A DNA stretch of 64,000 nucleotides. It comes from Moorena sp. SIO3I8. GTDB taxonomy: Bacteria > Cyanobacteriota > Cyanobacteriia > Cyanobacteriales > Coleofasciculaceae. The notes under the pieces are model-generated. The model was not told the DNA's origin. It worked only from the letters and a program-made list of their open reading frames with translations, and searched no databases. The stretch is taken from contig NZ_JAAHHW010000027.1 of the NCBI RefSeq assembly GCF_010692325.1, positions 2,640-66,639 of the forward strand, written 5' to 3'. Every line of letters starts with the position of its first letter. Position 1 is the first letter of the stretch. Position numbers and translations under genes: made by a program. Positions 60,322 to 64,000 of the stretch are shown piece after piece.

Positions 60322-60803
60322 CGATGTCGCGCACTTAAATTGTCGATTTTTGAGTAAGGGAGAAAAACTACAAAGTCCTTTCCCTTACTCCTGAGTACCC
60401 CTGCCCCCTTACCAATTCAATCAAAGAAATCAAATCATTTGTAGCATTAATAGTGCTAATTCATAGTGCTAATTCATAGTGCTAATTCAGATTATATGCC
60501 TCACAGGTTACTTCCCCTTCTTGCAGTATCTTCCCCCACTTCCCGTCTCTTCCCGATCTCCATAAATCATCCCGCTACAATTACAACGCCGTTATTTGGG
60601 TCGGACTAGTCGGGAACTCTATATGTAACTGGTATATCTAACTGGCATCACAGAAGTCCATGTTGTTCAATGATTCTAACCCATAATGAACAGCTCTAGG
60701 GTATTCCATCACTGAGTCAATAGACTCTGGCACTATAACTGTACTTGGTATTGCCTATTGGTGGCATGATTTAGCCAAGTCTTACCTAAAGACCTTCCTC
60801 ATC

Positions 60804-61316
60804 TTGATCACTCATCAAACCGAAAGCCATATTGGGAATGAAAACTATGGAATAAAAACTATGATAAAAGCCAGGCTTTTCGGCAAAACTAGGTTGCCCA
60901 AACCATTTGTTTGGACAGTCATTTTTATCTGCATTTTACCCTATATTCTGCATCAATTAGGGGTTGATTTTAGTACCCATCAGGAACTGTTTGACCTCTC
61001 GGCAGCCTCTGAATGGGAACCCCATGAAGTTAATGATGCCATGCACTCGGTCTTTTCCGGAAGTTTTGTACACACACTCCTGGAGTGGAGTGGTGTCTGT
61101 ACAGCGTTTTTTACTGTTTGCTTAGCCTTCACGAACTACAGCATCACCAAAGACCCAATCGTTCCTATCATCGGCGTATCACTTTTTTTTGCTGGTGTGA
61201 TAAATGCCTTTCATACTCTGGCTGCTGACCGCTTAATTGATGTTGTCGCCGATAATCGTAATTTAACTAGCTCGGCGGGAATTCCCACGCTTAAGCCACA
61301 GCTTAGCGTGGGATGA
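60804..61316 (+). CDS. Hypothetical membrane protein; its last ~10 codons run into the IS200/IS605 left end
   Basis: 170-aa ORF with several hydrophobic helices. Confidence 0.4.
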   Translation: MITHQTESHIGNENYGIKTMIKARLFGKTRLPKPFVWTVIFICILPYILHQLGVDFSTHQELFDLSAASEWEPHEVNDAMHSVFSGSFVHTLLEWSGVCTAFFTVCLAFTNYSITKDPIVPIIGVSLFFAGVINAFHTLAADRLIDVVADNRNLTSSAGIPTLKPQLSVG

Positions 61317-61359
61317 AAGCCAGGTTGGGTGATGGGGTTCGATGCCCCATCACCCAACA

Positions 61360-61790
61360 TCAGTCAGGTCTGTCCTGACTCTGAACGTATTCTTTGAGTT
61401 GTTCAACGGTAACCCCTCCACAACTAGCAATGAAGTAGCCGCCAGTCCAGAACACTTTTTTCGAGTAATACTTATTCACTTGATCGGGAAATTATTTCCG
61501 TAGGTATCGACTGGAAACGGTCTTGAGATTATTGATTAGTTTGCTCAGCTGAGTCTGGGGATTGTATTGGATCAATAAATGAACGTGATCCGCTTCACCA
61601 TTGAACTCGACCAAACTACCTTCCCACTTAGACATCAGTTCTGAAAATATTGATTCTACGCGGGTTAGCATCACCCCTGTGAAGACTTTACGCCGGTATT
61701 TTGGGACTAACACGTTGAGGAGCTTTCAAGTTTGAAACGCCTCTAGCACGGTGGATATCATCTTTAGGCATGGGTTGACACTAATTCCTG
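61360..61790 (-). pseudogene. tnpA: IS200-type Y1 (HUH) transposase TnpA, inactivated
   Basis: ORF 61492..61713 carries ...VPKYRRKVF...HVHLLIQ...SRYLRK and then a TAA stop. The next in-frame codons continue the family C-terminus (FPDQVNKYYSKKVFWTGGYFIASCGGVTVEQLKEYVQSQ). The N-terminal region upstream of VPKYRRKV is also out of frame. Confidence 0.7.
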
Positions 61791-61842
61791 TGCTGGTGCT
61801 ATAATAACACTAAGCCCCGCAGTAATGGTCGGATCGGCCGCT

Positions 61843-63246
61843 ATGAAATCAACGCTTCAGTATCGAGCTTACTTAAACACTAAGCAAAAACTTGAGGCTA
61901 ATTATTGGCTTCGAGTGTGTCGCTATTGGTATAACCGCCAGCTCGGAGATCGTTTCGATTGGTGGGACAACAATAGAACCAAAGTCAACGCTTGTCCGTT
62001 AGTTTGCCCGTTACCTGAGCTCAGAGATCAGCCGACTAGATACGGTCAACAGTCACAATTGCCTGGACTCAAAACAGATCTGATCAAGGTGTTTCATAGC
62101 GGTGAGCTGTTGGACTTCACCCGATTAGATTCAACCGTTTTGCAGGATGTCTGCAAACGGGCTGACGATGCTTTCAAGCGTTATATATCGGGTGATTCCA
62201 ATGGCTTGCGTAGCGGTAAGCCACGGTTTAAGAACCAATCCAGCTACCGGACGATGGTGTTCGCAATGGTCAAACCAAGGTGGATTTATCTTGTCCGCAA
62301 AAACTGGCTCTATATCAAGCTTCCCAAGCTCGGAATGGTGAAGGTTCGGATGCACCGACCAATGCCGGATGGTGCCGTTGTCAAACGTGTTAGCTTGACT
62401 AAAAAAGCCGATGGTTGGTATATCAACCTGACCGTAGCAGATCCTACGGTGCCTAAGTTGACGCCTGATCAGATTGTCCCCACTTGGGATAACTCAATCG
62501 GTCTTGACGCAGTGCTAGAGGGCGATGACTACATTGCCACATCTGAAAATACCAAATACAAATCAGCTAAACCGCTGCGTAAGTCTTTACCAAAACTCAA
62601 GGCCGTCTCTGCTAAGAAATCATCGAAACGTAAAGGTTCTAAAGCCCGTCGCCAGCTAGCATTGCGTGAATCTCGAATACATCAACGCATTGCTAGGCAG
62701 CGCCAGAATCACCGTTACAACCTGGCTCACTTGCTGGTGAAAACCGGCAAGAAAGTGTTTTTCCTAGAGTTGCTAAATATCAAGGGACTGACAAAACGAA
62801 ATAAACCCAACAAAGCCGCTGATGGGACGTATTTGCCTAACGGCCAATCGGCTAAGTCTGGGCTGAACAAGTCTTGGTTAGACGCGGCGTTTGGTGAATT
62901 TATAACCACACTGGACTACATAGCCTCAAAAGCTGGAGCAGTGGTTATCAAACAAAAACCGGCGTATTCATCAATGATTCTGAGTTATCGGAACGAAGTT
63001 ATATTTACCGATTGCTCAATCAGAAAGTATTACGATCCGGTTGAAAAGGTTTTGGTTGACCGGGATGTGAATGCCGCAATCAACCTCAAACGACTTGGGC
63101 TGGGCGTTTTCCCAAGTATAAAACGGCGTAGTGGGAAGCTAGTCGTATCTGGCGATATGGACAATAGTACCACGAAGCAAATCGTGTCTATCCTAAGGGA
63201 CGGCACGGACACTCGATCGCTTCTCAGTCTTTGGCCTATGGCCTAG
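61843..63246 (+). CDS. tnpB: IS605 OrfB-family TnpB (RuvC-like RNA-guided nuclease homolog)
   Basis: N-terminus MKSTLQYRAYLNTKQK and RuvC-like motifs (IGLDA, FLELLNIKG, DRDVNAAINL). The usual CxxC...CxxC zinc finger is replaced by SSMILSYRNEVIFTDCSIRKYYDPV, which has a single Cys. Confidence 0.75.
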   Translation: MKSTLQYRAYLNTKQKLEANYWLRVCRYWYNRQLGDRFDWWDNNRTKVNACPLVCPLPELRDQPTRYGQQSQLPGLKTDLIKVFHSGELLDFTRLDSTVLQDVCKRADDAFKRYISGDSNGLRSGKPRFKNQSSYRTMVFAMVKPRWIYLVRKNWLYIKLPKLGMVKVRMHRPMPDGAVVKRVSLTKKADGWYINLTVADPTVPKLTPDQIVPTWDNSIGLDAVLEGDDYIATSENTKYKSAKPLRKSLPKLKAVSAKKSSKRKGSKARRQLALRESRIHQRIARQRQNHRYNLAHLLVKTGKKVFFLELLNIKGLTKRNKPNKAADGTYLPNGQSAKSGLNKSWLDAAFGEFITTLDYIASKAGAVVIKQKPAYSSMILSYRNEVIFTDCSIRKYYDPVEKVLVDRDVNAAINLKRLGLGVFPSIKRRSGKLVVSGDMDNSTTKQIVSILRDGTDTRSLLSLWPMA

Positions 63247-63652
63247 CCTTTGGCGAACGGATGAAGAAGCCCACGCTATAGCGCCAGCTTAGCGGTGGGA
63301 GTGCGTCACTTCCATTTACCTGGGCACTCTGTCGGCTTTTCAATGCACTAATCCTGATTCTAGGAACTAGCCTTTGCTCAAGGAGAAGCTGGGTAGAAAA
63401 AAACCAAACCAGGAGCTTGGGTTTTGTCATTATTGTCAGCTTGGGGTTTGGGTTGATTGCCTATGGTATAATTCCAGGGTAAACGCATCTAAATTTGTAT
63501 CAAAATTAACAGTTAAAAATTAAACAATAGTATCAAAAATCTAGAATTACCCGGTTGATTCTCAATAAGCGCCACTTATTCTCAATTATAGCAGTCGCCA
63601 GGGCAGGCGCGGACATGACAAAAGTCTCAAACCTAAGTAAGCGCAAGAGTTT

Positions 63653-63688
63653 GACTTCTGACTTCTGACTTCTGACTTCTGACTTCTG
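63653..63688. repeat. STRR heptamer tandem repeat (gacttct x5)
   Basis: Read directly. Confidence 0.85.
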
Positions 63689-64000
63689 CTATATTGGCTG
63701 TGTTATCCAAGGTCGATTTGAGAGTACTCTACATTCTGGTTTCGTACGGAAATCCGACTTTGATTCTTGTTTAAAGTCAGCGGAAAATTTGTTGACTTTG
63801 AACAAAAAAAACTGCTTTTAGGATGGGATTTATTCGAATTTAACAAAAAATTGAGTTAATCATTTTTTTTTCTGTTACCATTTATATCAAATAAGATGCG
63901 TTTACCCTGGCTTTTCTATTGCTTCTTGCCTATTCCCTATTCCCAATTGCGTATTCCTTATTGCGTATTCCCTATTTCCTATTTGGTATTTCCTATTCCC

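Follow-up and report, generated by a model that had tools for sequence, protein, structure and literature searches.

The window, by which we mean the whole 64,000-nucleotide stretch of the Moorena sp. SIO3I8 contig analyzed here, contains a MASE3 membrane sensor gene that is split by an IS605-type element of 2,043 bp (positions 61267 to 63309). The 5′ part of the host gene occupies 60804 to 61266 on the forward strand, and the gene resumes at 63310 to 63482. When exactly 61267 to 63309 is deleted in silico, the MASE3 frame becomes colinear and no base is left duplicated, indicating insertion 3′ of TTTAA without target duplication; the junction 61266/63310 (TTTAA joined to TTCC) restores a contiguous MASE3 reading frame, and a shift of one base fails to do so. 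The score against the Pfam MASE3 profile rises from about 30.7 to 30.9 bits for the 5′ fragment to 45.3 bits after excision, with residues 87 to 209 of the rebuilt protein aligning to profile positions 7 to 128 in one stretch. The host gene also bears a second insertion, at 63474 to 63910, where all three frames are open to the end of the window.

Homology with four other copies of the element (L001 to L004) extends from 61261/61262 to 63309/63310, and these copies, together with the rebuilt host gene, fix the left end. A first-pass annotation of this DNA had recognized an IS200/IS605 element, a call that stands, but had drawn its bounds at 61284 to 63310, which have to be corrected to 61267 to 63309. 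The features that it described are all present in the sequence, at or within 1 to 2 bases of where it had placed them. The motif TTTAA (61262 to 61266, forward strand) is host sequence lying 5′ of the left end, outside the element, and is the putative target and transposon-adjacent motif (TAM). All five close copies share TTTAA with a C directly after it, and the sequence farther upstream is unrelated among them; more distant members of the family have TTTAG, as in the Microcoleus copies, or (T)CTAG in its place.

The assignment to the IS200/IS605 family is based on profile matches for both TnpB and TnpA, on the divergent arrangement of the two genes, which is likewise that of IS605, and on direct-oriented subterminal hairpins. 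IS605 and IS608 from Helicobacter pylori and ISDra2 from Deinococcus radiodurans are the reference members, which have in common a Y1 HUH transposase, TnpA, and a TnpB. Like them, the element has no terminal inverted repeats, carries subterminal imperfect hairpins that share one orientation, and is inserted without duplication 3′ of a short motif, although this motif is TTTAA here versus TTAC for IS608 and TTGAT for ISDra2. Overall, 61267 to 63309 is very probably an ordinary IS605-type insertion sequence of the IS200/IS605 family in which the cysteine-free TnpB is a trait of the lineage. For annotation purposes, this is no more than a non-autonomous IS605-family copy that has inactivated a MASE3 sensor gene.

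Element ends and the tnpA pseudogene

The left end (LE; 61267 to 61359, forward strand) contains a subterminal imperfect hairpin at 61284 to 61312 (CCCACGCTTAAGCCACAGCTTAGCGTGGG) and a second, perfect hairpin of 14 to 15 bp at 61324 to 61358, located just past the tnpA stop codon in the direction of tnpA. The right end (RE; 63270 to 63309, forward strand) consists of a hairpin at 63270 to 63299 (CCCACGCTATAGCGCCAGCTTAGCGGTGGG), on the same strand as that of LE, followed by a 10-nt tail, AGTGCGTCAC, that closes the element at 63309. Direct-oriented end hairpins had been proposed at 61284 to 61312, exactly as found, and at about 63269 to 63299. The two form the longest direct repeat in 61200 to 63400 (25 nt, 84% identical; 61284 to 61308 and 63270 to 63294). 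Folded as single-stranded DNA, the LE hairpin has a free energy of −13.5 kcal/mol (z, −3.6) and the RE hairpin one of −10.2 kcal/mol (z, −2.0); the second LE hairpin has a dG of −17.7 (z, −6.3). Both LE hairpins are kept in L003 and L004 despite changed stem sequences, and the subterminal one is kept, with an altered stem sequence, in distant copies as well. Each pair of the RE hairpin shows 12 to 24 compensatory changes across 45 copies. Homology in all copies ends with GGAGTRYGTCAC, and several contigs stop at exactly that point. From the left cleavage site to the LE hairpin there are 17 nt, and from the RE hairpin to the right site there are 10 nt, a geometry close to the 19 and 10 nt of IS608.

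The tnpA gene for the Y1/HUH transposase (61360 to 61771, reverse strand) is a pseudogene. Two regions of it match the Pfam Y1_Tnp profile, namely, 61492 to 61713 (profile positions 10 to 82; 82 bits, E = 5e-23) and 61360 to 61479 (positions 89 to 121; 32 bits, E = 1.5e-7). These fragments share one frame on the reverse strand, with a TAA between them, and both are hit by the NCBIfam model transpos_IS200 as well (73.8 bits; cutoff, 55). The HUH motif (HVHLL) and the region of the catalytic tyrosine (WTGGYF) remain readable. When the gene is aligned, as DNA, with its intact counterparts in L001 and L004 (136 aa), the nonsense codon proves to be codon 93, changed from GAA to TAA (61492 to 61494), and a +1 insertion that disrupts the N terminus is located near 61712. 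The first-pass annotation had likewise described a dead TnpA with a TAA in place of a sense codon, a C terminus continuing in frame beyond the stop, and a broken N terminus, and the alignment bears this out. Unlike the reference elements IS605, IS608, and ISDra2, this copy has a dead tnpA, and it can no longer move by itself because its Y1 transposase gene carries both a frameshift and a nonsense codon. However, both subterminal hairpins and the sequences at the cleavage sites are intact, so that the TnpA of another copy could still mobilize the element in trans.

An intact 136-aa tnpA in the same divergent layout is found in L001, L002, and L004 and at roughly 40% of the 84 loci fetched for comparison. 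Filamentous cyanobacteria carry the family widely (421 matching loci in cyanobacterial genomes), and the copies closest to the present one are in Moorena genomes. Single genomes may hold several copies with unrelated flanks (e.g., L057 to L059 and L068 in Scytonema HK-05); judging from these multiple copies and differing flanks, the family is evidently active and mobile. At the present locus, the element would have entered as single-stranded DNA directly 3′ of TTTAA in the MASE3 sensor gene, splitting it.

The divergent starts of tnpA and tnpB are separated by a 71-bp spacer (61772 to 61842) that contains TTGACA at 61775 to 61780 and TATAAT at 61800 to 61805. At 19 nt apart, the two hexamers are conceivably a promoter; the consensus scan, limited to spacings of 16 to 18 nt, did not report them. 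Promoter and terminator counts from that scan did not exceed chance.

A predicted structured RNA at the 3′ end of tnpB

The region from 63093 to 63309 (forward strand), which overlaps the final ~50 tnpB codons and extends to the right end, is the predicted omega/re-RNA scaffold region. ISDra2 is similar in that its guide-RNA scaffold overlaps the 3′ end of tnpB (PMC10097598). RNAalifold analysis of 45 copies gives four helices (63093-99/63111-17, 63126-33/63171-78, 63143-49/63154-60, and 63183-93/63200-09) along with the RE hairpin, and a single-sequence fold yields the same scaffold helices. Over the 39 pairs and 45 copies, 94.7% of cells are paired, compared with 36 to 43% with slid partners; changes on both sides, i.e., compensatory changes, are present in 27 of the 39 pairs, and the observed values were reached by none of 500 shuffles. 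Synonymous divergence is also depressed across the last ~50 tnpB codons. A conserved secondary structure extending from the 3′ end of tnpB through RE is strongly supported by this comparative evidence, and we infer that the region gives rise to an RNA. The scaffold had been expected at 63100 to 63310; the region stands, with the start moved to about 63093 or earlier. A covariance search had been suggested as a way to find it, but a scan of 60500 to 64000 with all Rfam 15 families at permissive E-values returned only chance-level matches and no omega-RNA family; support for the RNA therefore comes through the covariation counts instead.

An additional, lineage-specific stem-loop (63219 to 63270, forward strand; −9.7 kcal/mol, z −2.4), inside which the tnpB stop codon falls, separates the conserved scaffold from the RE hairpin. 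It is found in the window copy and in L003 and is shorter in L004; L001 and L002 have a short GCTTCT..AGAAGC hairpin, and the wider family lacks it.

Position 63310 is the first base past RE that diverges in all copies. The 16 nt of host sequence from there to 63325 (forward strand), TTCCATTTACCTGGGC, are the predicted guide, with the length taken by analogy with ISDra2, the mechanism of which also underlies the guide role given to RE-flanking sequence (PMC10097598). By the same analogy, TnpB would be expected to use both a TAM and a guide: the 3′ extension of the RNA, beginning with TTCCATTTACCTGGGC, would act as the guide, and the complex of TnpB and RNA would recognize TTTAA followed by a guide match, as for ISDra2 and Geobacillus TnpB. 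TTTAA and the guide match together would be the scar remaining upon excision of the element, and cutting of this scar may lead to restoration of the element through recombination with the sister chromosome.

TnpB and the condition of this copy

The tnpB gene (61843 to 63246, forward strand) encodes an intact protein of 467 aa with the residues D222, E309, and D408 and a cysteine-free TNB domain at about residues 372 to 406. Alignment to TnpB profiles had been put forward as a check on its identity, and these profiles are clearly matched: NF040570 (guided_TnpB) scores 160 bits (cutoff, 100), with residues 12 to 423 on profile positions 2 to 388 of 389, and the Pfam domains HTH_OrfB_IS605, OrfB_IS605, and Cas12f1-like_TNB are all above their cutoffs. 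The last of these matches full-length at 34.3 bits versus a cutoff of 26.3 bits, even without the cysteines. TnpB also matches the ISDra2 TnpB structures 8EXA and 8H1J (E = 2.7e-13), and the catalytic and zinc residues of ISDra2 were mapped by alignment to these structures together with PMC10097598. D222, E309, and D408 align with D191, E278, and D361 of ISDra2. Thus, an intact TnpB with RuvC-I/II/III-like motifs, as described in the first-pass annotation, is what we find. The triad is intact in all 84 fetched loci and invariant in the family alignments, and TnpB is presumed to be an active nuclease. At 467 aa versus 408 aa, the protein is longer than that of ISDra2, having an insertion of ~19 aa after RuvC-II and a conserved C-terminal tail of ~45 aa.

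The tnpB dN/dS ratio is 0.15 against L001 and 0.11 against both L003 and L004. Set against positions conserved in at least 95% of homologues, the window TnpB deviates at 16, as compared with 12 to 17 in intact close relatives. Two of its deviations are unique to it, E199A and K274L, both at highly conserved positions and neither occurring among 120 homologues: position 199 is Glu in 120 of the 120, and position 274 is Lys in 117. Given the dead tnpA as well as these two substitutions, the TnpB of this copy may be starting to decay despite its open frame.

A stronger form of this idea, that the element as a whole, including tnpB, is a functionally dead fossil whose open frame reflects recent inactivation, with TnpB impaired by E199A and/or K274L, is possible but on balance unlikely. 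The two independent tnpA lesions and the two substitutions fit it, as does the presence of a single copy of the element in the 64-kb window; the second insertion in the host gene also points to a locus under no selection. However, tnpB is open over 467 codons with every catalytic and family-invariant residue except E199 kept, its deviations at conserved positions are as numerous as in intact relatives, and neither the ends nor the RNA helices are damaged.

The missing zinc finger

The CxxC...CxxC motif is absent from the TnpB of this element. The first-pass annotation had already noted that the zinc finger was lost and that one Cys was left; alignment to the ISDra2 structures identifies that residue as C391, the only Cys of the TNB segment, and places it off the zinc-ligand positions. 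The zinc cysteines of ISDra2, C331, C334, C351, and C354, correspond to L380, R383, D398, and E401 in the window TnpB, with the spacing unchanged. Leu380, Arg383, and Asp398 are invariant in 121 of 121 aligned homologues (60 to 93% identity), whereas the fourth position is variable in the lineage (Asn, His, or Glu), and all 84 fetched genomic loci read L-R-D-x. A first homologue alignment was likewise without the cysteines in 20 of 20 sequences. Comparison of these sequences indicates that the absent zinc finger is a trait of a large cyanobacterial TnpB lineage, not damage to this copy, and that strong purifying selection acts on the residues that took the place of the cysteines.

Cysteine-free representatives extend down to about 48% identity, and relatives at about 40 to 44% identity or less have CxxC...CxxC at the same alignment columns. 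Since these distant relatives still have the motif, a single old loss is suggested, in which the cysteines disappeared once, long ago, in an ancestor of the lineage. At that point the zinc site most likely gave way to an arrangement in which the same small TNB domain is packed without metal. A salt bridge between Arg383 and Asp398 would be the obvious candidate for a stabilizer of the TNB domain; in an AlphaFold2 model built from a 66-sequence family alignment (mean pLDDT, 68), residues 372 to 467, TNB included, are poorly modeled, with values below 50. A replacement of this kind is seen in the C-minus paralogues of zinc-ribbon ribosomal proteins, in which CxxC...CxxC has given way to a metal-free version of the same domain across a lineage. 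The ribosomal proteins are an unrelated family, and the evidence here does not link zinc economy to the loss in TnpB.

Zinc-finger loss is already known from the literature, so that what is gained here is a well-characterized case rather than a new principle. Altae-Tran et al. (2023, PNAS; PMC10691335) reported that the zinc finger has been lost, or is mutated, in certain large TnpB branches, including clade RIIIr-4, and the C4 zinc finger is therefore typical of TnpB but not strictly defining. The catalytic site is conserved in those branches, which the authors take to be active (PMC10691335). The present lineage resembles them in having lost the C4 site between RuvC-II and RuvC-III branch-wide while keeping the catalytic site. 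Our literature search for a described TnpB that is zinc-finger-less, or cyanobacterial and Y1 associated, returned nothing specific.

Whether the lineage is fully active is an even call: it may well be a zinc-independent TnpB in which an invariant Leu/Arg/Asp packing (e.g., with the Arg383-Asp398 salt bridge) took over from the C4 ribbon in a single event and which then spread through filamentous cyanobacteria. A nuclease insensitive to metal and redox state was possibly favored in oxygen-producing, metal-limited cells. If this is true, RNA-guided cleavage would not need the TNB zinc site, and compact genome editors could be built on a naturally metal-free scaffold taken from the lineage.

It is improbable that the cysteine-free lineage is instead a non-nuclease RNA-guided DNA binder, either a TldR-type regulator or a non-cleaving homing factor, with the loss of the zinc finger marking the change. 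TldRs are defined by RuvC inactivation, whereas all 84 loci keep the D-E-D triad; moreover, the genes lie between IS ends with TnpA adjoining at many loci, copies within one genome differ in their flanks, and the RNA retains the transposon right end. What favors such a change in role is that the loss of a structural motif sometimes accompanies exaptation and that the role of the zinc finger in TnpB has been called unclear (PMC10691335).

The first-pass annotation had left two options for the missing zinc finger, a TnpB variant and a decaying copy, and only the variant survives, because the cysteines are missing from every sequence of the family that was compared and Leu380, Arg383, and Asp398 in their place are invariant. 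That point mutations removed the cysteines from this copy alone, other copies having normal CxxC pairs, is refuted: although tnpA of the same element is clearly dead and two substitutions at conserved positions are unique to this copy, the cysteines are absent from all 121 proteins and all 84 loci, tnpB dN/dS is low, and copies with an intact tnpA (L001, L002, and L004) share the cysteine-free TNB domain.

A TnpB zinc finger that is missing across an entire mobile lineage under strong purifying selection amounts to a natural experiment on its role. A few hundred sequences with known ends and a predicted TAM and guide RNA could serve to test if RNA-guided cleavage depends on the TNB zinc site, and the lineage is a possible source of metal-free TnpB.

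Several other assignments were considered and set aside. The defining feature of clade RIIIr-4 is a RuvC-III residue that has moved, but D408 in the DRDxNAAxN motif of the window protein aligns with D361 of ISDra2, and the protein is therefore a canonical-site TnpB. A Pro-Fanzor or an IS607-type TnpB does not fit an element whose TnpA is of the Y1 type and whose TnpB has its Glu at the canonical position, nor does TldR-type domestication fit an intact RuvC triad with IS ends and tnpA present. Subtype V-U2 (C2c8) proteins are known from cyanobacteria, and their model NF038192 gives the second-best NCBIfam match (121 bits, E = 7e-35); however, the cutoff is 350 bits, the repeats of the region include no CRISPR array, and the gene lies between IS ends.

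Boundaries, host gene, and gene content

The element was delimited against four related copies, with nucleotide identities to the window of 90% (L001 and L002), 83% (L003, from Moorena sp. SIO4G3), and 79% (L004). Their similarity to the window begins at 61261/61262 and stops at 63309/63310. On the left flank, TTTAAC is invariant among the copies and all sequence 5' of it is unrelated; on the right, every copy finishes ...GGGAGTGCGTCAC and diverges from there on. The reading frame that the element cuts into on its left side (from 60804) codes for a MASE3 membrane sensor domain. When 61266 is joined to 63310 in silico (...DNRNLIPFTWALCRLF...), the MASE3 match improves from 30.7 bits to 45.3, and residues 87 to 209 lie on profile positions 7 to 128 in one stretch; shifting the junction by one base produces an early stop. 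The copy comparison and the restored frame therefore place the element at 61267 to 63309 (2,043 bp). TTTAA lies immediately 5' of it and no target sequence is duplicated, in line with the way IS200/IS605 elements insert; more distant members have TTTAG (in the Microcoleus group) or (T)CTAG (in the Scytonema group) at the equivalent flank. No second copy was found within the 64-kb window.

The MASE3 gene (60804 to 61266 plus 63310 to 63482, with the remainder past the window end) is also broken by a MITE-like insertion of about 437 bp (provisionally 63474 to 63910) just 3' of the IS; with these two interruptions, it is a pseudogene here. The MITE-like insertion has no long ORF, and at its ends are perfect inverted repeats of 17 bp (CCAGGGTAAACGCATCT at 63474 to 63490, reverse complement at 63894 to 63910), which have no further copy within the window. 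It contains a heptanucleotide array (TGACTTC, 5.3 copies, 100% matches, 63652 to 63688), and 10 CCTATTC-type repeats run from 63916 to the window end at 64000; filamentous cyanobacteria typically carry short tandem repeats of this kind.

The element carries two divergent genes. The 467-aa tnpB ORF (61843 to 63246, plus strand; homologues do not use the ATG farther 5' at 61825) matches nearly the whole of NCBIfam NF040570, “RNA-guided endonuclease TnpB family” (160 bits; cutoff, 100), and its product is above the cutoffs for Pfam HTH_OrfB_IS605, OrfB_IS605, and Cas12f1-like_TNB. The IS200/IS605 assignment made in the first-pass annotation is correct. The 71-bp tnpA-tnpB spacer holds a perfect TTGACA and a perfect TATAAT pointing toward tnpB (61775 to 61805), which a consensus scan passed over because they are 19 nt apart.

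The tnpA gene survives on the minus strand as two fragments in the same frame, at 61492 to 61713 and 61360 to 61479, covering positions 10 to 82 and 89 to 121 of the IS200-type Y1 transposase profile. In an alignment with L001 and L004, in which tnpA is intact (136 aa), this copy shows a one-base insertion near 61712 that disrupts the N-terminal strand (KAHLVLVP... becomes KAPQRVS...) and a change from GAA to TAA at codon 93 (61492 to 61494); apart from these lesions, the HUH motif and Tyr region can still be read. TnpA is dead, as had been proposed from the sequence, and this copy is nonautonomous. Among the 84 loci fetched, about 40% have a tnpA match without interruption, likewise divergent from tnpB, and the others are tnpB-only. 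The left-end hairpin is separated from the tnpA stop codon by a perfect 14- to 15-bp GC-rich hairpin (61324 to 61358; dG, −17.7 kcal/mol; z, −6.3), which is retained with other stem sequences in L003 and L004, has an analog in distant copies, and may act to end tnpA transcription or to block transcription reading in from outside.

Loss of the zinc finger

The element is a textbook IS605/IS608/ISDra2 in everything but the TNB cysteines. In a HMMER alignment to the solved ISDra2 TnpB (residue numbers from PMC10097598), D222, E309, and D408 fall on the catalytic D191, E278, and D361. The zinc ligands of ISDra2 TnpB (C331, C334, C351, and C354; PMC10097598) correspond to L380, R383, D398, and E401, and MAFFT alignment with Cys-bearing relatives gives the same positions with equal spacing. 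The missing CxxC...CxxC reported earlier is thus real. It had been read either as decay of this copy or as a variant that no longer needs the finger. Cysteines are absent in 20/20 homologues first aligned (62 to 93% identity); L380, R383, and D398 are invariant in 121 proteins, as are the neighboring Y382, E385, F388, and R394, with N, E, or H at the fourth position; and every one of the 84 fetched loci, of which 80 come from cyanobacterial genomes, has L-R-D-x and the D-E-D triad. The dN/dS of tnpB is 0.15 (versus L001), 0.11 (versus L003), and 0.11 (versus L004), indicating strong purifying selection. Since the other copies also lack the normal CxxC and dN/dS is this low, plain decay is excluded, and the loss is an old, selected family trait. 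Among 50%-identity representatives, cysteine-free sequences reach down to about 48% identity, and relatives at ≤44% (P0125 among them) carry CxxC...CxC/CxxC at the corresponding columns, a pattern that fits a single ancient loss.

The window TnpB deviates at 16 positions conserved at ≥95%, compared with 12 to 17 in intact close relatives, and 14 of these deviations are common to at least one such relative. Those unique to it, E199A (Glu in 120/120) and K274L, are not catalytic. Judged by its sequence, this tnpB may retain full function or may only just have begun to decay.

A salt bridge between Arg383 and Asp398, along with packing of Leu380, is a reasonable guess as to what stabilizes the cysteine-free TNB domain; the AlphaFold2 model has pLDDT of <50 over residues 372 to 467 and is thus uninformative on TNB packing. 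Relative to ISDra2 TnpB, there is also an insertion of about 19 aa after RuvC-II (62810 to 62870; residues ~320 to 342, KRNKPxxxxDGTYLPNGQSAKSGLNKSW), in a region disordered in the ISDra2 structure. It is common to Cys-bearing relatives (28 to 42% identity) and so predates the zinc-finger loss.

A pro-Fanzor was rejected, as pro-Fanzors are IS607 associated with a relocated Glu, as were a V-U2 effector (its score of 121 bits lies below the cutoff of 350) and a TldR (the triad is intact and IS ends are present). The RuvC-III position is canonical, so the lineage is not RIIIr-4; most simply, it is one of the other zinc-finger-loss branches of Altae-Tran et al. 2023 (PMC10691335), who note that some large TnpB branches, RIIIr-4 included, have lost or mutated the finger. 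Literature searches returned no paper specifically on this cyanobacterial lineage, and the element is a well-delimited new example of a known element kind and a known phenomenon.

RNA structure and element ends

The last ~50 tnpB codons and the right end are much more conserved in DNA than the remainder, and synonymous divergence in those codons is between one third and one half of the level elsewhere in tnpB. From 45 copies, RNAalifold predicts several helices (63093-99/63111-17, 63126-33/63171-78, 63143-49/63154-60, and 63183-93/63200-09), which the window sequence also forms when folded by itself; they are followed by a lineage-specific extra stem-loop (63219 to 63270) and the right-end hairpin (63270 to 63299). 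For 39 pairs in 7 helices, standard pairs occupy 94.7% of cells, compared with 36 to 43% when partners are slid by 1 to 3 columns, and 27 pairs have changes on both sides, compared with 6 to 12; none of 500 shuffles reached these values. Covariation thus supports a structured RNA at the tnpB 3' end, where the scaffold had been predicted; the search for a known omega-RNA found no matching Rfam family for the region. The structure has the form expected of an omega/re-RNA scaffold, and the predicted guide is the flanking TTCCATTTACCTGGGC.

The longest direct repeat of the region (25 nt, 61284 to 61308 and 63270 to 63294) underlies the end hairpins, which fold imperfectly on the same strand and so are direct oriented, as first described. 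The left cleavage site is 17 nt 5' of the left hairpin, and the right end is 10 nt past the right hairpin. Across 45 nonidentical copies, each pair of the right hairpin has been kept through 12 to 24 double changes (for example, CCCACGTCA/TGACGTGGG, CCTACATCA/TGATGTAGG, and CTACCCTG/CAGGGTAG), and the tail GGAGTRYGTCAC is almost invariant.

Going by ISDra2 and studies related to it, excision of the top strand between TTTAA| and GTCAC| would depend on TnpA, provided in trans if at all. Once resealed, the donor, TTTAA-TTCCATTTACC..., would be exactly the transposon-adjacent motif plus the guide match, so that TnpB-RNA could cut it, forcing repair from the element-bearing copy.

Several assemblies stop precisely at ...GTCAC, as expected of a repeated element. 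One family copy (L048; contig JBOFSK010000192.1, 3.6 kb) is binned as an “Aeromonas sp.” MAG, all other hosts being cyanobacteria; most likely, this label reflects a binning error rather than horizontal transfer.
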